A stretch of 64,000 nucleotides of DNA from Escherichia coli (GTDB taxonomy: Bacteria; Pseudomonadota; Gammaproteobacteria; Enterobacterales; Enterobacteriaceae). Below the pieces are notes generated by a model. That model worked only from the letters and a program-made list of their open reading frames with translations. It searched no databases and was not told the DNA's origin. Both the position numbers and the translations under genes were made by a program. Positions 1 through 9,293 of the stretch are shown here, piece after piece. How positions within the stretch are numbered: position 1 is the first letter of the stretch; every line of letters starts with the position of its first letter. The DNA lies in assembly GCF_036507355.1 (NCBI RefSeq), contig NZ_AP027877.1; one strand, 5' to 3'.

Positions 1-459
1 GTACTGACCGCTGAACAAGCCCTGAAATTAGTGGGTGAGATGTTTGTTTATCACATGCCATTTAACCGCGCATTGGGGATGGAACTGGAGCGTTACGAAA
101 AAGAGTTCGCACAGCTGGCCTTTAAAAATCAGCCAATGATGGTGGGCAACTGGGCGCAAAGCATTTTGCACGGCGGGGTCATTGCGTCGGCGCTGGATGT
201 CGCCGCCGGTCTGGTGTGCGTGGGAAGTACCTTAACCCGCCACGAAACCATCAGTGAAGATGAACTACGCCAGCGGCTATCGCGGATGGGGACCATTGAT
301 CTTCGCGTTGATTATCTGCGCCCAGGCAGGGGCGAGCGTTTTACTGCAACCAGTAGCCTGTTGCGTGCAGGCAATAAAGTCGCCGTCGCCCGCGTTGAAT
401 TACACAATGAAGAACAGCTTTATATTGCCAGTGCCACCGCCACCTATATGGTAGGTTGA
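1..459 (+). CDS. yigI: PaaI-type acyl-CoA thioesterase YigI; 5' end cut by window start (frame open back to nt 1)
   Basis: ORF 31..459 translation matches remembered YigI; no stop in frame between nt 1 and 31; synteny with rarD. Confidence 0.8.
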
Positions 460-510
460 AGACATAAAAGCAGGTAAACTGCTGTTACCAATTAAAAATG
501 AGTATTCCCG

Positions 511-1401
511 ATGGATGCAAAACAAACGCGGCAGGGCGTATTACTCGCTCTTGCCGCTTATTTTATTTGGGGTATAGCCCCAGCGTACTTCAAGTTGATT
601 TACTACGTGCCCGCCGATGAAATCCTGACGCATCGCGTGATCTGGTCGTTTTTCTTTATGGTGGTGCTGATGAGCATTTGCCGCCAGTGGTCCTATTTAA
701 AAACGCTGATTCAGACGCCACAGAAAATTTTTATGCTTGCAGTCTCTGCCGTGCTGATTGGTGGCAACTGGCTACTGTTTATCTGGGCGGTGAACAATCA
801 CCATATGCTGGAAGCGAGCCTTGGTTACTTTATTAACCCGCTGGTGAACATTGTGCTGGGGATGATTTTCCTCGGCGAGCGATTCCGCCGGATGCAATGG
901 CTGGCGGTGATTCTGGCGATATGTGGCGTGTTGGTTCAGCTGTGGACTTTTGGTTCACTGCCGATCATCGCGCTGGGACTGGCATTTAGTTTTGCCTTCT
1001 ACGGTCTGGTACGCAAGAAGATTGCCGTTGAAGCGCAAACCGGCATGTTAATCGAAACTATGTGGCTGCTGCCCGTGGCGGCAATTTACCTGTTTGCTAT
1101 TGCCGATAGCTCAACCAGCCATATGGGGCAAAACCCGATATCGCTGAATTTACTGCTGATCGCTGCCGGTATTGTCACTACCGTACCGCTGTTGTGTTTT
1201 ACTGCAGCTGCGACACGCCTGCGTCTCTCAACGTTAGGCTTTTTCCAGTACATTGGCCCGACGCTGATGTTCCTGCTGGCTGTGACGTTTTATGGTGAAA
1301 AACCGGGTGCCGATAAAATGGTGACTTTCGCCTTTATTTGGGTGGCGCTGGCAATTTTTGTGATGGATGCAATTTATACTCAACGTAGAACGTCCAAATA
1401 A
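511..1401 (+). CDS. rarD: RarD, EamA/DMT-family transporter
   Basis: 296-aa polytopic membrane ORF, expected length and synteny. Confidence 0.9.
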   Translation: MDAKQTRQGVLLALAAYFIWGIAPAYFKLIYYVPADEILTHRVIWSFFFMVVLMSICRQWSYLKTLIQTPQKIFMLAVSAVLIGGNWLLFIWAVNNHHMLEASLGYFINPLVNIVLGMIFLGERFRRMQWLAVILAICGVLVQLWTFGSLPIIALGLAFSFAFYGLVRKKIAVEAQTGMLIETMWLLPVAAIYLFAIADSSTSHMGQNPISLNLLLIAAGIVTTVPLLCFTAAATRLRLSTLGFFQYIGPTLMFLLAVTFYGEKPGADKMVTFAFIWVALAIFVMDAIYTQRRTSK

Positions 1402-1435
1402 AAAATAAATATATTCTGAAAAAATATGCCGACTC

Positions 1436-1813
1436 TTGCATGAGAGTGGGCATATTGCCATGCTGACAGGAGACTCACACAAGGATGTAAAATTTATGTT
1501 ACGTATGTTTATCCCAACATCTAACGGTAAGATTTCCAGACGCCGTTATATATTTTCATTTATTTTAATAAACTTCATTTTTGCCTTTCTTATTATCTTT
1601 TTTAACGATGGAGAAGCAGGTTTTCTTGTTATAGTCTCTACCATCTTACTCCATTATCTCGTCATCAATCTGAATTGCCAACGACTCCGTGATAGTGGTT
1701 TCGTCTATATAAAAACTTATGTTTTTGGTACATTAGCAGTATATATCATCTCTATCATCACAATGATAGCCGAAGATTTTGCCTGTTCAGGCAATGGTTC
1801 GATGATTTTTTAA
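1436..1813 (+). CDS. yigG: small inner-membrane protein, YigG-like
   Basis: 125-aa hydrophobic ORF in the expected position between rarD and yigF; start codon uncertain. Confidence 0.55.
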
Positions 1814-1888
1814 TTTGTTATTTTTCCACTTTCAGTATGCTAATGCTTGCACCTACTGATTCATCAAAACAATAGTTATGGAGTATTT

Positions 1889-2269
1889 ATGAGTAAGGAA
1901 TATATGAACGATGGTTCATTAAGTGAAAAATGGAAATACCGATTTAATTTTTATGATCAACATGGTTTTCCTGGATTCTGGGGGGCAACACCAGAATATA
2001 AAGCAGCATTTAAAGCATTAAAAGTAAGACAACGCTTAACTATTCAAATGAATTTCATTGCTTTCTTCTGTTCCTAGATATATTTATTTGTCCTGGGGTT
2101 ATGGAAAAAAGCAATTATAGTTCTATTACTTGGTATTCTATCTCTATTTGTTGGTGCACTAATTGGCGTTAACATTCTGGGTATTGCCGTAGCAGCCTAT
2201 GTTGCTGTTAACACGAACAAATGGTTCTATGAGAAAGAAGTAAAAGGGTTAAATACCTGGAGCCTTTGA
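1889..2269 (+). pseudogene. yigF: yigF (DUF2628 membrane protein) interrupted by in-frame TAG at 2075-2077
   Basis: Frame from MSKEY (1889) stops at TAG 2075-2077, then stays open in the same frame for 63 more codons to TGA 2267-2269; 62+1+63 = 126 codons, the length I recall for intact YigF. Confidence 0.6.
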
Positions 2270-2275
2270 ATAAGA

Positions 2276-2310
2276 GGTGGCTTAGCCAGGCTAAGCCACC
2301 GCCTTCTTTT
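2276..2310. terminator. hairpin (GGTGGCTTAGCC/GGCTAAGCCACC) plus T-run between convergent yigF and corA 3' remnant
   Basis: perfect inverted repeat followed by CTTCTTTTT on the + strand. Confidence 0.5.
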
Positions 2311-2446
2311 TACAACCAGTTCTTGCGCTTAAAGTACAGATACGGTGCCAGGCCCGCGAGGATCATAAAGATAATCGCGCCTGGGTAGCCGAAACTCCAC
2401 TTCAGTTCTGGCATAAACTCAAAGTTCATGCCATAGCTGGAGGCAA
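2310..2446 (-). pseudogene. detached corA 3'-terminal remnant (last 44 codons incl. GMN motif); left copy of a 137-bp imperfect direct repeat
   Basis: ORF 2310..2513 ends ...[44 protein letters not shown], identical in amino acids to the C-terminus of full corA at 4017..; upstream part of the ORF is unrelated or decayed. Confidence 0.7.
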
Positions 2447-2637
2447 TCCGCGTAGGAAAAAGTTTCCTAATCGGTAAATTCAACATATTGTTATTAACAA
2501 TGGGCAAAACCAATCAATAACGAGATTCCCTTCGGAATGTAATAAAAATGTGAAGTGTACTTCTTTTTTAAAATTTTTTATCCTAGCATTTGTTCTCAAA
2601 TTGATATTGAGCTTAAATATAACCAAGGAAAATGTAA

Positions 2638-3345
2638 ATGAATAACACATTACTTCCATCAATTAATATTCCCTGTACACTTTTCGAAACTATTAGTTTA
2701 TTTGATGATTATTCTGCTGATGATATGCAATATGGTGATATGGTAGAACAAGATTTTCTCTCACTCGGCCTAAGCGATATCTCAGCAAAAGTTGATCCTT
2801 ACAGACTTATTAAATACCATTTCCCTGGCCCAGGTTCTGTTAATGTTGTTTTTAGTGCCTCAAGTTCCGGAACAAAAATATCACAACGTGAATGCACTGA
2901 TATTTTATTTGCAGAAATGAAAGAACTAGCAAAAAATTTTTCCTTTTTTGGACAATATAAAACACTTATCGAAGATCTGATTGAACATTTTAGATATGGA
3001 AATGGCAGCAATTTTCATAGCCAACAATTAAATTTATCTTTTCATGAAAAGATAAATAAATATGGTTATAATAGTCCAATACGAATAATCAAAGAATGTA
3101 TCGAAAATGGCATTAATTCAACTCCCTCGACAGGATACCAACCTCTTATCCTGCAAAGCATTAAAACCAAATTACTTTCATCAAGACTAAATAAATTTAA
3201 TGACTTCGAGGACAGTTTTAATGGCTTAGGAATCAGTATTCATGATATTTCAGCTCAAAAAAATATCTCTTTTAAGCTTTCAAAAATACGCTATAGGGTG
3301 GAGTGCGACAATTCATTTTGTAGCACAGGACCACTTCGGTCTTGA
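2638..3345 (+). CDS. hypothetical protein, AT-rich cassette gene A; probably frameshifted, C-terminus may continue in +1 frame to 3487
   Basis: 235-aa ORF with AAGGA RBS ~8 nt upstream; ~30% GC; overlapping +1-frame ORF 3242..3487 ends in an ATGA overlap with gene B. Confidence 0.5.
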   Translation: MNNTLLPSINIPCTLFETISLFDDYSADDMQYGDMVEQDFLSLGLSDISAKVDPYRLIKYHFPGPGSVNVVFSASSSGTKISQRECTDILFAEMKELAKNFSFFGQYKTLIEDLIEHFRYGNGSNFHSQQLNLSFHEKINKYGYNSPIRIIKECIENGINSTPSTGYQPLILQSIKTKLLSSRLNKFNDFEDSFNGLGISIHDISAQKNISFKLSKIRYRVECDNSFCSTGPLRS

Positions 3346-3483
3346 TGTAACTGATATCAAAAACAAGACTTACAGCAAATATAGATTTTTTCGCATATGG
3401 TTCTTTTTACAACGGCATAAAGGCTTTGCTTTCAAACCTTTTTTCACCAATTTTAACACTATCGAAAGAATCGAAAATTATCT

Positions 3484-3975
3484 ATGAAAAGCAAACGCCA
3501 GAAAATTATATTATGTTTATTTCTTCTATGCTGTATCTATAATTTATGGACATTGCGTCCTGTACAGATTTTGTATACATACTCTGATGCTGGCAATTCA
3601 GTCTTTCTGGTCGTTGATCATCTGCCATGGACTGACAGCGATAAAATAAATTGGTATCTGAAGCATCAGAATGAAATTAAAAATCAACATCCCCTACCAG
3701 AAGGTAGTTGGCATACCTGGTATGTCATTGATATCGGTAATGGCTTCACTGACTATAAAAAATATATCGAAGGGCCGTATGAAGATCTCTACTGTTTCCC
3801 GACAATTAAGAGCAATGATAATTGCATCGTGAAAAATTACTTAATGGTTATTAATGAATACCCTTATCGTAACACTCATATTGGTATTAACGATTTTACT
3901 GAGTATCAATTAACACAAGAAAATAAAATAGAGCGAGTTTTCAATCCGCATGACTTTAAAAAAGACAATTTTTAG
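3484..3975 (+). CDS. small protein with N-terminal hydrophobic anchor/signal, cassette gene B
   Basis: 163-aa ORF, N-terminus KIILCLFLLCCIYNLW is hydrophobic; start overlaps upstream frame by ATGA; AT-rich. Confidence 0.55.
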   Translation: MKSKRQKIILCLFLLCCIYNLWTLRPVQILYTYSDAGNSVFLVVDHLPWTDSDKINWYLKHQNEIKNQHPLPEGSWHTWYVIDIGNGFTDYKKYIEGPYEDLYCFPTIKSNDNCIVKNYLMVINEYPYRNTHIGINDFTEYQLTQENKIERVFNPHDFKKDNF

Positions 3976-3980
3976 AAATA

Positions 3981-4010
3981 AGCCGGATAAAAAAATAGCT
4001 TTATCCGGCA
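3981..4010. repeat. REP-like palindromic hairpin (GCCGGATAAA...TTTATCCGGC) between cassette gene B and corA stop
   Basis: 10-bp inverted repeat seen directly; motif resembles E. coli REP units. Confidence 0.4.
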
Positions 4011-4016
4011 CTCATA

Positions 4017-4967: not shown

Positions 4968-5336
4968 GACCGGGACTCCCAATGCTTAAAATATCGGACA
5001 GTTCGGTGGGCACACAGAAACAAATTGGGTTTCAGACCATTAAACAGCCTGACTCAGCGCGACGGGAAAAATTGAGGTCGCTGACAACCGCTAAGGCTAT
5101 CAGCAAAAAGGGATAGCCTTAGGAGTTGATCCTGGATGACAGGATAGTGAGCCAGTATCTACTGGGTGTGTCCAAGGCGAATGTCCTCTTAGAGTGATCG
5201 TGCGCGCATGTTACGCCAGCAAAATTTTGCCGTCAACACGCAACAGAACACCACAGAACAATAGTTGAACTTCGCGCTTTTTGGTACTCGTCAAGGTCGC
5301 TAACAGGATAAAAAAATCCCACATCCAGGACCTATA

Positions 5337-6101
5337 ATGGCGCATCGGCTACTCATTGGTAAAGGAATGATCACCTTGAATCTCAAACGGATTTTTCTCG
5401 CCCTCACCTTACTTCCCTTGTTTGTTGTTGCCGCTGATGATTGCGCACTCTCAGATCCGACGCTGACCGTACAGGCGTATACCGTTAATCCTCAAACAGA
5501 GCGGGTGAAAATGTACTGGCAAAAAGCCAATGGCGAAGCGTGGGGAACTTTACATGCTCTGCTGGCGGATATGAATAGTCAGGGTCAGGTGCAGATGGCG
5601 ATGAACGGCGGCATCTATGATGAAAGCTATACGCCGCTCGGTTTGTACATCGAAAACGGTCAGCAGAAGGTGGCGTTAAATCTCGCTTCAGGTGAAGGGA
5701 ATTTCTTTATCCGTCCTGGCGGCGTGTTTTATGTCGCGGGAGATAAAGTCGGCATCGTTCGTCTGGATGCCTTCAAAACCAGTAAAGAGATTCAGTTTGC
5801 GGTGCAGTCAGGGCCAATGTTGATGGAAAACAGTGTAATTAATCCGCGTATTCATCCCAACGTCGCCTCACGTAAAATTCGTAACGGTGTTGGGATTAAT
5901 AAACATGGGAATGCCGTGTTTTTGTTGAGCCAGCAGGCGACAAATTTTTATGATTTTGCCTGTTATGCCAAAGCGAAACTGAACGTTGAGCAGCTGCTTT
6001 ATCTTGATGGCACGATTTCACATATGTATATGAAAGGCGGGGCAATCCCGTGGCAACGCTATCCTTTTGTCACCATGATTTCCGTCGAGCGGAAAGGTTA
6101 A
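5337..6101 (+). CDS. yigE: DUF2233-family protein YigE
   Basis: 254-aa ORF with signal-like N-terminus; expected position between corA and uvrD. Confidence 0.8.
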   Translation: MAHRLLIGKGMITLNLKRIFLALTLLPLFVVAADDCALSDPTLTVQAYTVNPQTERVKMYWQKANGEAWGTLHALLADMNSQGQVQMAMNGGIYDESYTPLGLYIENGQQKVALNLASGEGNFFIRPGGVFYVAGDKVGIVRLDAFKTSKEIQFAVQSGPMLMENSVINPRIHPNVASRKIRNGVGINKHGNAVFLLSQQATNFYDFACYAKAKLNVEQLLYLDGTISHMYMKGGAIPWQRYPFVTMISVERKG

Positions 6102-6183
6102 GCATTGTACACTCGAGGAGGCCAGACAAACTGGGGCTGGCTACACAGCTGGAAAATCATCAGATAAATGAAGGGAAACAAAA

Positions 6184-7086
6184 ATGAAAAAAACGCTCGC
6201 AACGTTATTTTTATTAACGTGTCTGGGATCATCATCCGCTTATGCGGATAACGCTTTGATTTTACAAACGGATTTTAGCCTGAAAGATGGCGCCGTCTCG
6301 GCGATGAAAGGGGTCGCATTCGGTGTTGACCATAATCTTAAAATATTTGATTTAACACACGAAATTCCACCGTATAACATCTGGGAAGGCGCATACCGCC
6401 TGTATCAGACCGCCAGCTACTGGCCGCAAGGTTCGGTGTTTGTCAGCGTGGTCGATCCGGGCGTGGGGACTGACCGTAAATCGGTGGTGCTGAAAACCAA
6501 AAACGGTCAATACTTCGTTTCACCGGATAACGGTACGCTCACTTTGGTGGCGCAATCGCTGGGTATTGAGAGCGTCCGGCAAATCGATGAAAAAACCAAC
6601 CGCCTGAACGGTTCCGAAAAGTCATATACCTTCCACGGTCGTGATGTGTATGCCTACACCGGTGCGCGTCTGGCTTCCGGGGCGATCACGTTCGAACAGG
6701 TGGGGCCAGAGCTTCCTGCAAAAGTTGTCGAACTGCCTTATCAGAAAGCCAAAGCAACAAAAGGTGAAGTAAAGGGCAATATCCCGATTCTCGATATTCA
6801 GTACGGCAACGTCTGGAGCAATATCAGCGACGAGTTGCTGAATCAGGCAGGAATCAAACTCAACGATACGTTATGTGTGACCATTTCCGAAGGTTCCGAG
6901 AAAAAATACGAAGGGAAAATGCCGTATGTCGCCAGCTTCGGCGATGTGCCGGAAGGACAGCCGATGGTGTATCTGAACAGCTTATTGAATGTTTCCGTGG
7001 CGCTGAATATGGATAATTTCGCGCAGAAACATCAGGTTGCGTCTGGTGCTGACTGGAATATTGATGTGAAGAAATGTGATAAGTAA
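6184..7086 (+). CDS. secreted S-adenosyl-L-methionine hydroxide adenosyltransferase family protein (DUF62 / fluorinase-chlorinase-like fold)
   Basis: 300-aa ORF; N-terminal signal peptide MKKTLATLFLLTCLGSSSAYA; family-typical motifs ILQTDFS..DGAVSAMKGV and DLTHEIPPYN. Confidence 0.7.
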   Translation: MKKTLATLFLLTCLGSSSAYADNALILQTDFSLKDGAVSAMKGVAFGVDHNLKIFDLTHEIPPYNIWEGAYRLYQTASYWPQGSVFVSVVDPGVGTDRKSVVLKTKNGQYFVSPDNGTLTLVAQSLGIESVRQIDEKTNRLNGSEKSYTFHGRDVYAYTGARLASGAITFEQVGPELPAKVVELPYQKAKATKGEVKGNIPILDIQYGNVWSNISDELLNQAGIKLNDTLCVTISEGSEKKYEGKMPYVASFGDVPEGQPMVYLNSLLNVSVALNMDNFAQKHQVASGADWNIDVKKCDK

Positions 7087-7130
7087 GGTGCTGATGCCGG
7101 ATGCGGTGTGGCGCACCGCATCCCGCAACG

Positions 7131-9293
7131 TTATACCGTCTCCAGCCGGGCGTATGCCGCCACCAGCCATTTAATACCCTGGCCCTGGAATGCCACCTGC
7201 AAACGGCTATGCTCGCCGCTGCCTTCCATATTGACGATAGTGCCTTCACCAAACTTAGCGTGGCGTACACGCTGGCCGAGCTTGTAGCCGCTGTCGTTCT
7301 CGACCATCGGCGTACCCATACGCTGATGGCTGACCGGGCGGCTTACCGTGGCGCGCAGGCGCACCTCTTCCACACACTCTTCCGGCAACTCACCGATAAA
7401 GCGCGACGGGCGATGGTAAACCTCTTTGCCATACAGACGGCGAGTTTCCGCGTAGGTCAGCGTCAGTTTCTGCATCGCGCGGGTTACGCCAACGTAGGCC
7501 AGACGGCGTTCTTCTTCCAGACGACCGCCTTCATCCAGCGACATCTGGCTTGGGAACATGCCCTCTTCCATACCGACGATAAACACCTGCGGGAACTCCA
7601 GCCCTTTCGCCGAGTGTAGCGTCATCAACTGCACCGCGTCCTGCCAGGTATCCGCCTGCCCCTCGCCCGCTTCCAGCGCCGCATGGGAGAGGAATGCCTG
7701 CAGCGGCATTAAATCTTCGTCTTCTTCGTTGTAGCTGAACTGGCGCGTTGCCGTCACCAGTTCCTCCAGGTTTTCGATACGCGTCTGACCTTTTTCGCCC
7801 TTCTCCTGCTCGTACATGGTGCGCAGGCCGGAGTCTTTAATTACCCGGTCAGTCTGTACATGCAGCGGCATATCGGCAGTTTCCTGCGCTAAGGCGTCGA
7901 TCAGTTCCATAAACCGCTGTAAGGCGCTGGCAGCACGTCCGGCGAGGGCTTTTTCCTGCAACAGTTCACGACATGCCTGCCAGAGTGTTAACTGGCGATC
8001 GCGCGATGTCTGACGTACCACGTCCAGCGTCCGGTCACCAATACCCCGCGTTGGCGTATTCACCACACGCTCAAAGGCCGCGTCGTCGTTGCGGTTGGCA
8101 ATCAGGCGCAGATACGAGAGCGCATCTTTGATTTCCTGGCGTTCGAAGAAGCGCATCCCGCCGTAAATACGGTACGGCATACTGGCCTGCAATAACGCCT
8201 CTTCGAGCACCCGCGACTGGGCGTTGCTGCGGTAGAGAATGGCGCACTCGGCAAGCGCTCCGCCGTTGTCCTGCCAGGTTTTGATGCGGTTAACCACAAA
8301 ACGCGCTTCATCGAGTTCGTTAAAAGCGCAATAGAGGGAAATAGGCTCACCGTCCGCGCCATCGGTCCACAGTTTTTTACCCAGACGCCCGTTATTGTTT
8401 TCAATCAGGGCGTTAGCGGCGCTCAGAATATTGCTGGTAGAGCGGTAGTTTTGCTCCAGACGAATAGTTTCAGCACCGGGGAAATCATTGAGGAAACGCT
8501 GAATATTCTCTACCTGCGCCCCGCGCCAGCCGTAGATTGACTGGTCGTCATCACCGACGATCATCACTTTGCCGGTGTCGCCCGCCAGCAGGCGGATCCA
8601 CGCGTACTGAATGTTGTTGGTATCCTGGAATTCGTCCACCAGGATATTGGTAAAACGTTCGCGGTAGTGTTGCAGGATATGCGGCTTGTTAAGCCACAGT
8701 TCGTGGGCGCGCAGCAGCAGCTCGGCGAAATCCACCAGACCCGCGCGGTCACACGCTTCCTGATACGCCTGATACACCTTCTGCCAGGTCTGCTCCACCG
8801 GATTACCGTAGCTTTGAATATGATGCGGACGTAAGCCTTCATCTTTCTGGCTGTTGATGTACCACATTGCCTGGCGCGGCGGCCACTGCTTCTCGTCGAG
8901 GTTCATCGCCTTGATCAAACGCTTAAGCAGGCGCAGCTGGTCTTCACTGTCGAGGATCTGGAAATCCTGCGGCAGATTGGCGTCCATATGGTGCGCACGC
9001 AGCAGGCGGTGCGCCAGCCCGTGGAAGGTGCCTACCCACATGCCGCCCTGGCTGGTGCCCATCAGTTGCCCGATACGATGACGCATTTCCGCCGCCGCTT
9101 TGTTGGTAAACGTCATCGCCATAATCGAGTATGGCGAGCAGTTTTCCACGCTCATCAGCCAGGCGATACGATGCACCAGTACGCGCGTCTTACCACTGCC
9201 CGCGCCCGCCAGCACCAGAAGGTTGCTGCGTGGCGCGGCCACCGCTTCGCGCTGTTTGTCATTAAGGCTGTCGAGCAGGTAAGAAACGTCCAT
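7131..9293 (-). CDS. uvrD: DNA helicase II UvrD
   Basis: ORF 7131..9482 contains MDVSYLLDSLNDKQREAV start (ATG at 9293) and Walker A GAGSGKT; 720 aa. Confidence 0.95.
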   Translation of the reverse strand: MDVSYLLDSLNDKQREAVAAPRSNLLVLAGAGSGKTRVLVHRIAWLMSVENCSPYSIMAMTFTNKAAAEMRHRIGQLMGTSQGGMWVGTFHGLAHRLLRAHHMDANLPQDFQILDSEDQLRLLKRLIKAMNLDEKQWPPRQAMWYINSQKDEGLRPHHIQSYGNPVEQTWQKVYQAYQEACDRAGLVDFAELLLRAHELWLNKPHILQHYRERFTNILVDEFQDTNNIQYAWIRLLAGDTGKVMIVGDDDQSIYGWRGAQVENIQRFLNDFPGAETIRLEQNYRSTSNILSAANALIENNNGRLGKKLWTDGADGEPISLYCAFNELDEARFVVNRIKTWQDNGGALAECAILYRSNAQSRVLEEALLQASMPYRIYGGMRFFERQEIKDALSYLRLIANRNDDAAFERVVNTPTRGIGDRTLDVVRQTSRDRQLTLWQACRELLQEKALAGRAASALQRFMELIDALAQETADMPLHVQTDRVIKDSGLRTMYEQEKGEKGQTRIENLEELVTATRQFSYNEEDEDLMPLQAFLSHAALEAGEGQADTWQDAVQLMTLHSAKGLEFPQVFIVGMEEGMFPSQMSLDEGGRLEEERRLAYVGVTRAMQKLTLTYAETRRLYGKEVYHRPSRFIGELPEECVEEVRLRATVSRPVSHQRMGTPMVENDSGYKLGQRVRHAKFGEGTIVNMEGSGEHSRLQVAFQGQGIKWLVAAYARLETV

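Follow-up and report, generated by a model that had tools for sequence, protein, structure and literature searches.

The described relatives closest to the protein considered here belong to the SAM_HAT (DUF62) family, whose members act on S-adenosyl-L-methionine (SAM). On one side are the cytoplasmic DUF62 hydrolases, PH0463 (1wu8, 2wr8), MJ1651 (2f4n, 22uy), the T. maritima protein 2zbu and Salinispora StDUF62, which are made without a signal peptide and are proposed to clear the inactive (R,S) epimer of SAM; in these enzymes, a strictly conserved Asp-Arg-His triad (D68-R75-H127 in PH0463) activates water (PMC4859513, PMC10491745). On the other side are the halogenases, i.e., the chlorinases SalL (2q6i), ClA1 and ClA2 and the fluorinase FlA (1rqp), which bind a halide, are without the water-activating triad and exclude water (PMC10491745); they too are cytoplasmic, and they are found within natural-product gene clusters. 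What, then, would such an enzyme do outside the cytoplasm? The question is raised by an open reading frame (ORF) of Escherichia coli that lies between yigE and uvrD in a stretch of 64,000 nucleotides (NCBI RefSeq assembly GCF_036507355.1, contig NZ_AP027877.1; the whole stretch is hereafter the window), and whose product is, with high probability, an exported DUF62-type hydrolase.

The existence of this gene is not new, as RefSeq already annotates it as a family member. No published work on exported DUF62 proteins was found in the open literature, and the functional discussion of the family assumes a cytoplasmic repair enzyme that removes the SAM epimer (PMC12120602; bioRxiv 10.1101/2025.08.29.672840; PMC10491745). 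With respect to the initial annotation, which was made from the sequence alone, the present analysis places the protein on the hydrolase branch, finds that the exported clade is large and that the state of strain K-12 looks derived, and brings in an orthologue that had been overlooked, HP0709 of Helicobacter pylori.

Family, active site and export signal

The initial annotation had assigned the ORF to the SAM hydrolase/fluorinase-chlorinase fold, and the profile search that it proposed bears this out. PF01887 (SAM_HAT_N) matches amino acids 26-174 with 179.7 bits (cut-off 26.3, E 3.5e-53) and PF20257 (SAM_HAT_C) matches amino acids 198-291 with 67.5 bits (cut-off 25.5, E 1.3e-18); both scores exceed the gathering thresholds of Pfam, and both profiles are covered nearly end to end. 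A sequence search of the PDB returned matches from the SAM_HAT family only, led by T. maritima 2zbu (1.8e-43) and followed by SalL and ClA1 (~1e-37), PH0463 and MJ1651 (~1e-33), and the fluorinases (~1e-22). An AlphaFold2 model of the monomer, built from a 92-sequence alignment, has a mean predicted local distance difference test score of 93.8. Compared with the PDB by Foldseek, it gave template modelling (TM) scores, normalised to the target, of 0.81-0.92 (0.87-0.92 against 2zbu, SalL, ClA1 and PH0463), with E values below 1e-18 for the SAM_HAT family alone. The product is thus modelled with the two-domain fluorinase-like fold, and it shares this fold both with the cytoplasmic hydrolases (target-normalised TM 0.85-0.91, 30-34% identity) and with the halogenases (TM 0.81-0.92; E 1e-37 for SalL and 1e-22 for FlA), the latter sharing also the C5' adenosyl-transfer chemistry.

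What separates the two groups is the active site. In alignments, Asp91, Arg98 and His151 of the ORF product correspond to the D68-R75-H127 triad of PH0463, with an offset of 23 that matches the 1wu8 alignment range. The product has further motifs at Asp30, PDNG (amino acids 114-117), Arg153-Asp154 and D204...G208-N209; the triad, the N-terminal ribose-binding Asp, PDNG and D..GN are common to it and the cytoplasmic hydrolases. Among the 92 relatives, D30, D91, R98, N116, H151, R153, D154, D204 and N209 are nearly invariant. By contrast, SalL aligns Tyr, Thr and Tyr to the three triad residues, and the halide-binding residues that stand in the place of the triad are T80/S158 in FlA and Y70/G131 in SalL. 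The fluorinase equivalog TIGR04507 scores 81.8 against a cut-off of 400. With the triad present and this score so far below its cut-off, the aligned residues are those of a hydrolase, predicted to use water, and not those of a fluorinase or chlorinase. Nor should the protein be filed as a characterised (R)-SAM hydrolase, since its scores for the two corresponding equivalogs are also far below their cut-offs (NF058624, 132.5 vs 350; NF053629, 114.9 vs 470). Its nearest cytoplasmic relatives, at ~50% identity, have almost the same motifs, and the positions that depend on the clade, exported versus nearest cytoplasmic, are Lys42 (vs Tyr), Pro201 (vs Asp/Ala/Thr), Asn209 (vs Ser) and Asn265 (vs Asp). 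The ratio of nonsynonymous to synonymous substitution rates (dN/dS) is 0.03-0.05, whether Escherichia lineages are compared with one another or E. coli with H. pylori, and hence the gene is under strong purifying selection.

A Sec signal peptide had been proposed as well, and the N-terminus has all its parts. Amino acids 1-21, MKKTLATLFLLTCLGSSSAYA, are followed by DN and then by the first beta-strand, ALILQTDF. They consist of a basic n-region (MKK), an h-region (TLATLFLLTCLG) that falls within the 10-15 residues expected of a Sec signal peptide, and SSSAYA ahead of the Asp, with small residues at -3 and -1; over 9 residues, the hydrophobic core reaches a Kyte-Doolittle mean of 2.3 at best. 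Cleavage is predicted at AYA/DN, between A21 and D22. All solved homologues begin to align at query residues 23-29, so that amino acids 1 to ~22 are an extension; the solved homologues and the cytoplasmic-type relatives have 3-9 residues ahead of the first strand. AlphaFold2 confidence is low (~60) across residues 1-20.

This extension is not a peculiarity of E. coli. A basic, hydrophobic and small-residue N-terminal extension occurs in all ~80 species-level homologues with at least 55% identity, where it stops 2-4 residues ahead of the first strand: the feature is conserved, the sequence is not. The species belong to Proteobacteria, Bacteroidota, Verrucomicrobiota, Synergistota, Fusobacteriota, Thermotogota, Tissierellia and Planctomycetota, and two homologues from Bacteroidota, of Longitalea and Niastella, have lipoboxes instead. 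In the nearest clusters at 50% identity, represented by 90 full-length sequences, 45 look exported and 31 look cytoplasmic. To judge from these N-termini, the exported form is a large clade across many phyla and not a one-off, frequent in bacteria of soil and water, among them Chitinophaga, Verrucomicrobia and Aeromonas. Outside the cytoplasm, repair of (R,S)-SAM would have little point; with half of the nearest clusters carrying export signals, a large branch of the family would work where cytoplasmic repair cannot apply.

Two further points concern the N-terminus and the cysteines. The next Met is residue 41, past the catalytic Asp30, and a cytoplasmic form by means of an internal start is accordingly not available. 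Lipidation at Cys13 was considered and is unlikely: the Cys stands in LLTC, where Thr at -1 does not fit the lipobox of signal peptidase II (L-[AS]-[GA]-C with an invariant Cys), and it is replaced by His or Gln in Helicobacter acinonychis and H. pylori SA213A. As for the cysteines of the mature chain, members of the exported clade have either none or exactly two, while the cytoplasmic relatives have 1-7. In the 92-sequence alignment, Cys231 and the C-terminal Cys occur together in 22 sequences, mostly from Proteobacteria, neither occurs in 68, and the C-terminal one alone occurs in 2. Proteins folding in oxidising compartments are known to have their cysteines in even number or to have none, and from this pattern a Cys231-Cys298 disulfide is predicted. 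The ORF product probably resides in the periplasm, for which vesicle proteomics (PMC8756444) and patient serology (PMC11394471) of HP0709 offer weak, indirect support; a conserved export signal and a predicted disulfide are thus what distinguish it from the cytoplasmic hydrolases.

Proposed function

Taken as a whole, the data are best explained by a periplasmic DUF62-type enzyme that hydrolyses a SAM-like adenosyl-sulfonium compound in a scavenging role, an explanation towards which we lean without great assurance. We infer the following course of events. The Sec machinery would export the protein, the signal peptide would be cut after Ala21, and the mature enzyme would fold in the periplasm, probably stabilised by the Cys231-Cys298 disulfide and probably as a homotrimer, by analogy with its relatives. 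Asp91, Arg98 and His151 would activate a water molecule for attack on C5' of the adenosyl-sulfonium, displacing the sulfonium leaving group. The likeliest substrate would be SAM entering via porins, or a close analogue; the products would then be adenosine and L-methionine, both importable, and could feed nutrient uptake. E. coli is not known to take up SAM, and H. pylori depends on methionine from outside and on purine salvage, which makes a scavenging role attractive. That SAM salvage is the role of the product we regard as plausible, though short of probable.

The proposed logic is that of the periplasmic scavenging hydrolases. In Gram-negative bacteria, UshA and CpdB of E. coli and the gamma-glutamyl transpeptidase and asparaginase of H. 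pylori are Sec-exported enzymes that turn compounds unable to pass the inner membrane into importable pieces. The likeness would be one of functional analogy only, as the folds and chemistry of such scavengers are unrelated to those of the ORF product. Extracytoplasmic salvage of adenosine and methionine would be a concrete alternative for the disputed role of DUF62.

A number of points weigh against a scavenger of SAM. SAM is chemically labile and scarce outside cells, and a dedicated scavenger is not obviously worthwhile; the characterised cytoplasmic DUF62 enzymes are slow and favour (R,S)-SAM; and many members of the clade come from free-living bacteria of soil and water. The low scores for the (R)-SAM hydrolase equivalogs suggest that the substrate may differ. 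No experiments on exported members of the family were found in the literature, and the physiological role of DUF62 SAM hydrolases is itself disputed (PMC12120602). Lastly, in a survey of ~80 loci, in which up to 4 genes on each side were clustered, neither a transporter nor a nucleoside-catabolism gene is conserved as a neighbour across genera.

The same survey found no conserved partner across genera at all, synteny being limited to the genus level (Aeromonas, Chitinophaga, Neisseriales), and operon context gives therefore no functional clue. The only neighbourhood hint of nucleoside catabolism comes from three related metagenome-assembled genomes (MAGs) of Neisseriales/Burkholderiales, where the gene at +1 belongs to the Metalloenzyme superfamily and appears phosphopentomutase (deoB)-like. 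Domain fusions were considered as another clue and set aside, because the partners are heterogeneous and have no evident common function: some exported members are fused to Y_phosphatase3, alpha/beta hydrolase, Peptidase_M15 (D-Ala-D-Ala dipeptidase) and Emfourin domains (among others in proteins P0161, P0207 and P0243 of our collection), and proteins from Fervidobacterium MAGs (loci L075, 5971-7887, and L077) have two stretches matching SAM_HAT_C together with a Y_phosphatase3 domain.

What else could the enzyme be? It may be exported and active on a 5'-substituted adenosine other than SAM that it would encounter in the envelope or the environment. Candidates would be decarboxylated SAM, further adenosyl-sulfonium or adenosyl-onium compounds, 5'-halo-5'-deoxyadenosines and nucleoside antibiotics, and the purpose would be detoxification or salvage. 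The equivalog scores and the clade-specific differences at Lys42, Pro201, Asn209 and Asn265 speak for such a substrate, as do the abundance of the clade in soil and water, where free SAM seems an unlikely resource, and the open debate about the role of the family (PMC12120602). Yet the adenosyl-binding and water-activating residues are all unchanged, the motifs of the nearest cytoplasmic relatives are nearly identical, and the gene context suggests no alternative, so that we consider this explanation somewhat unlikely. A role directed at the host in E. coli, H. pylori, Pasteurellaceae and Aeromonas, where the enzyme would deplete extracellular SAM or produce extracellular, immunosuppressive adenosine as a colonisation or virulence factor, appears more improbable still. 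It would fit with the retention of the gene in O157:H7, ST131 and Shigella, and with what is reported of HP0709: the protein is found in the proteome of H. pylori outer-membrane vesicles (PMC8756444), is among the serum antibody markers for atrophic gastritis and immunogenic in patients (PMC11394471), and has a non-synonymous single-nucleotide polymorphism associated with gastric cancer in a bacterial genome-wide association study (GWAS), whose authors call its function uncertain (PMC6090961). However, the vesicle list also includes ribosomal and other cytoplasmic proteins and says little on location, and the clade abounds in free-living bacteria.

The remaining explanations depart further from the data. 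An ordinary cytoplasmic (R,S)-SAM repair hydrolase, whose seeming signal peptide would come from a wrongly assigned start or from a hydrophobic N-terminus without function, would agree with the location of all characterised members of the family (PMC12120602; bioRxiv 10.1101/2025.08.29.672840); it is nevertheless very improbable, given that no start codon lies between the signal peptide and Asp30, that the extension is kept in ~80 species of about eight phyla, sometimes as a lipobox, and that the cysteine census fits exported proteins. Hardly credible is a SAM-dependent halogenase that makes 5'-halo-5'-deoxyadenosine. The fold and family are the same and the names in RefSeq and in Prokka-style annotations allude to it, but the TIGR04507 score, the Asp, Arg and His found where SalL has Tyr, Thr and Tyr, the lack of this triad in the halogenases, which exclude water (PMC10491745), and a surrounding region with no halometabolite pathway genes and no natural-product cluster all contradict it.

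With regard to names, the RefSeq label is "SAM hydrolase/SAM-dependent halogenase family protein", Prokka-style pipelines call the protein "salL / adenosyl-chloride synthase", and many Shigella and H. pylori database entries (e.g., P0025, P0028, P0031, P0053 and P0054) call it "acetolactate synthase". The domain evidence and the aligned residues argue against both "acetolactate synthase" and "adenosyl-chloride synthase". Wrong names have already been carried into published GWAS and transcriptome tables. For instance, a transcriptome table for biofilms of H. pylori SS1 gives a 2.87-fold rise for a gene under the label "salL / adenosyl-chloride synthase", and also lists the methionine-transporter gene metI (2.18-fold) and the asparaginase gene ansA (2.11-fold) (PMC6212823). 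This gene is assumed to be the HP0709 orthologue, and the table is then a weak hint for salvage.

The gene in Escherichia and Helicobacter

The initial annotation had supposed that K-12 has no intact homologue at the yigE-uvrD junction and had called the gene likely accessory. Both statements hold: K-12 has a 146-bp gap that contains repetitive extragenic palindromic (REP) sequences instead, and the presence/absence survey that had been suggested finds the gene in 2413 of 5426 complete E. coli genomes, so that it is not core. The K-12-type empty junction occurs in 2990 of them, and carriers and empty junctions together account for 5403. Among the carriers are O157:H7, O55:H7, strain MNCRE44 of ST131, a T7Express strain derived from BL21, and Shigella; K-12 MG1655, NCM3722 and several Shiga toxin-producing and enterotoxigenic isolates are among those that lack the gene. 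The consequence is practical, in that the ~55% of E. coli without the gene, K-12 among them, are natural knock-outs, while BL21 derivatives and O157:H7 carry it.

Was the gene gained by some lineages or lost by others? In two divergent Escherichia lineages (L006, L007) it occupies the same yigE-uvrD site, and it has diverged from the window's copy (synonymous divergence, dS, 0.29-0.33) as much as the flanks have (dS 0.23-0.47). The empty allele is almost monomorphic, with 2956 of its 2990 copies at 99% identity or more, whereas the occupied alleles are diverse. From the common site, the matching divergence and the near-uniform empty allele, the gene looks ancestral at this site in Escherichia, and lost once, with the REP-containing junction in its place, in the lineage that includes K-12, rather than recently inserted. 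The high dS found within "E. coli" had at first sight been anomalous; it is accounted for by L006 and L007, which belong to divergent Escherichia lineages and in which the genes on either side have diverged to the same degree. The opposite reading, i.e., that the polymorphism reflects insertion into the yigE-uvrD spacer of some lineages and that the K-12 state is ancestral, could appeal to the GTDB scan, which returned only two Escherichia loci and no representatives of other named Escherichia species, and to the GC content of the gene (48.3%), which is below that of uvrD, yigB and xerC. That scan worked from exact peptide seeds with a single genome for each species, and absence from other Escherichia and Helicobacter species is provisional; the core neighbour yigE has an equally low GC content (47.6%), and at the locus there are no mobile-element genes or target duplications, nor are there plasmid or phage copies. 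Together with the shared site and the monomorphic empty allele, this makes insertion unlikely.

The change itself can be delimited. In K-12, sequence with REP copies stands in place of ~990 bp, made up of the spacer, the gene and 6 bp, and similarity to the window resumes inside the right arm of a REP hairpin that follows the gene. A REP-mediated rearrangement may have produced the deletion. Compared with K-12, the 3' 866 nt of uvrD (window 7131-8000) have a dS of 0.168 and yigE one of 0.024, which points to recombination with a breakpoint at the presence/absence site or close by. As a separate observation, the K-12 empty junction (locus L002, 1066-1211) holds a full REP, GCCGGATGCGGCGTAAACGCCCTATCCGGCCTACA, plus a second half-REP, and the single compact palindrome of the window resembles the outer arms of the K-12 REP pair joined.

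A candidate for a divergent second copy, in HS-02 (locus L086, 4900-5757), was rejected: it is a frameshifted pseudogene with internal stops at the same locus, with 78.9% DNA identity. The yigF gene in the HS-02 record also has an internal stop, and the state of the copy may reflect real decay or a low-quality assembly.

Outside Escherichia and Shigella, the closest homologues are those of H. pylori and H. acinonychis, which are 300 amino acids long and collinear without gaps. They are 89-91% identical to the E. coli protein and 83% identical in DNA (90%, 96% and 63.5% at the three codon positions), and they share the signal-peptide architecture, the catalytic residues and the Cys pair. The H. 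pylori copies (loci L003, 7982-8909, and L008, 4814-5707) lie in the order flgR, uvrA, hopE-like outer-membrane protein, rsmH, small ORF, the gene, homA-like outer-membrane protein and HD hydrolase, which identifies the gene as HP0709 (UniProt O25413; PMC8756444). The context in H. pylori (rsmH, HP0708, HP0709, homA, beside a prophage hotspot) thus differs from that in E. coli, and the GC content of HP0709 (42.9%, vs 32-41% for the neighbours and 48.3% for the E. coli gene) is shifted toward that of the H. pylori genome. No functional study of HP0709 was found in the accessible literature.

The next relatives are those of Aeromonas (70-76%), Haemophilus paracuniculus (74%), Neisseriales/Burkholderiales MAGs (72-75%) and Edwardsiella (72%). 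In a neighbour-joining tree with 200 bootstraps, Escherichia and Helicobacter group together with 100% support, and with Edwardsiella at 94%, inside a larger gamma/beta-proteobacterial group (72%). Given an identity of 89-91% and this position inside the gamma/beta clade, the sequences point to an inter-phylum horizontal transfer from an Escherichia-like enterobacterium to the ancestor of H. pylori and H. acinonychis, apparently shortly before the diversification of H. pylori. For the E. coli gene against that of H. pylori, dS is 0.87-1.1 and dN is 0.04-0.05; the two H. pylori alleles that lie furthest apart among those examined already have a dN of 0.041. Direction and timing are read from a distance-based tree of representative genomes, and the compared loci hold no other shared orthologues that could give a baseline for identity between the two species. 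In a blastn comparison of window 5300-7700, DNA similarity to the HP0709 locus extends over 6158-7092, from 26 bp ahead of the start codon to 6 bp beyond the stop codon, and ends exactly where the E. coli REP begins. The leader is the sole upstream non-coding stretch that is similar to the HP0709 locus, and it shares CATCAGATAA...GGAAA.

Two vehicles of transfer were considered and dismissed. The near-identical "plasmid" matches are records of 4.9 Mb, evidently chromosomes, and "Helicobacter phage Pt11444_1" is a prophage call that includes the host genes rsmH, uvrA and gyrA. This record (PQ159899.1; locus L087, 19844-32449) contains ~12 kb of H. pylori chromosome, with an HP0710-like gene, HP0709, rsmH, uvrA, flgR and part of gyrA; the actual prophage lies between the HD-hydrolase gene and the homA-like gene, adjoining HP0709. 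A prophage integration hotspot is described at this place (PMC11321410).

A still broader proposal is tentative, and we regard it as doubtful: exported DUF62 proteins would be widespread, unrecognised extracytoplasmic adenosyl-sulfonium hydrolases that make SAM of the environment or the host, or a related sulfonium nucleoside, a source of both methionine and purine, and H. pylori would have gained its gene from an Escherichia-like gut bacterium. If this were true, the function of DUF62 would not be limited to cytoplasmic (R,S)-SAM repair, and HP0709 would become a candidate nutritional or host-interaction factor. In any case, a mislabelled antigen and cancer-GWAS hit gains a rational annotation, and a protein that is 90% identical in H. 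pylori and E. coli makes an exceptionally clear example of inter-phylum transfer between bacteria that share the human gut.

The surrounding locus

The features of the locus are collected in the table. The ORF is uninterrupted and begins at the first start codon past the upstream stop. The best match to the window is E. coli strain S51, with 99.6% identity across the gene, and the window is thus E. coli chromosome, with the order corA, ysgD, yigE, ORF, uvrD, yigB, xerC. A spacer of 82 bp, in which no convincing promoter was found, separates the yigE stop from the ORF; the ORF and uvrD are convergent, with 44 bp between their stop codons. The gene yigE occurs in E. coli genomes both with and without the ORF, and no yigE-like gene is among the conserved neighbours in other genera. 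The GC content of uvrD, yigB, xerC and corA is 52-58%, above that of the ORF and of yigE.

Features of the yigE-uvrD region, in window coordinates
Feature	Position	Strand	Basis or remark
Upstream leader, Shine-Dalgarno-like AAGGGA	6158..6183	+	Read in the sequence; blastn against H. pylori loci
Complete SAM_HAT / DUF62 ORF, 300 amino acids plus stop	6184..7086	+	Pfam, AlphaFold2 model, Foldseek
Predicted Sec signal peptide, amino acids 1-21	6184..6246	+	Predicted signal peptidase I cleavage A21/D22
Mature enzyme (predicted), amino acids 22-300	6247..7083	+	Motif alignment with exported, cytoplasmic and PDB homologues
Asp30 codon, putative ribose-binding residue	6271-6273	+	Motif alignment
Asp91 codon, putative water-activating triad	6454-6456	+	Motif alignment
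Arg98 codon, putative water-activating triad	6475-6477	+	Motif alignment
His151 codon, putative water-activating triad	6634-6636	+	Motif alignment
Cys231 codon, predicted disulfide partner of Cys298	6874..6876	+	Co-occurrence, 92-sequence alignment
Cys298 codon (KKC motif), predicted disulfide partner of Cys231	7075..7077	+	Co-occurrence, 92-sequence alignment
REP-like palindromic hairpin, between convergent stops (ORF 7086, uvrD 7131)	7096..7126	.	Folding, motif count
yigE, NAGPA/phosphodiester glycosidase family, hydrophobic N-terminus	5337..6101	+	Core in E. coli; context only
uvrD	7131-9293	-	Downstream neighbour

A REP-like hairpin ahead of uvrD was part of the initial annotation, and it is indeed a REP-type element between convergent genes. 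Its arms, 7096-7108 and 7114-7126, form a near-perfect palindrome (GCCGGATGCGGTG / CACCGCATCCCGC) with a folding energy of -26.6 kcal/mol (z -3.3 against shuffles). The arm motif, GCCGGATGCGGYG, is enriched, with 5 matches in the window where 0.4 are expected by chance. An arm of the GCCGGATGCGG type, an imperfect intergenic palindrome and repetition, with the motif at three further sites of the window, place the element among REPs; its right arm is common to the K-12 junction, which also has related REP copies. No intrinsic terminator was called at the hairpin, and there is no T-run.

Another observation concerns the region between yigF and corA (window ~2450-4016), a low-GC islet (GC 0.30-0.36). 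It holds an ORF of 235 amino acids (2638-3345; RefSeq "YPO3983 family protein") and encodes a DUF943 protein of 163 amino acids (3484-3975) whose N-terminus is hydrophobic. Of the 5426 complete E. coli genomes, only 301 match 80% or more of window 1-4016, and the islet is absent from strain S51, otherwise the nearest match at the locus of the ORF. It forms, less than 3 kb from the ORF, a second accessory insertion.

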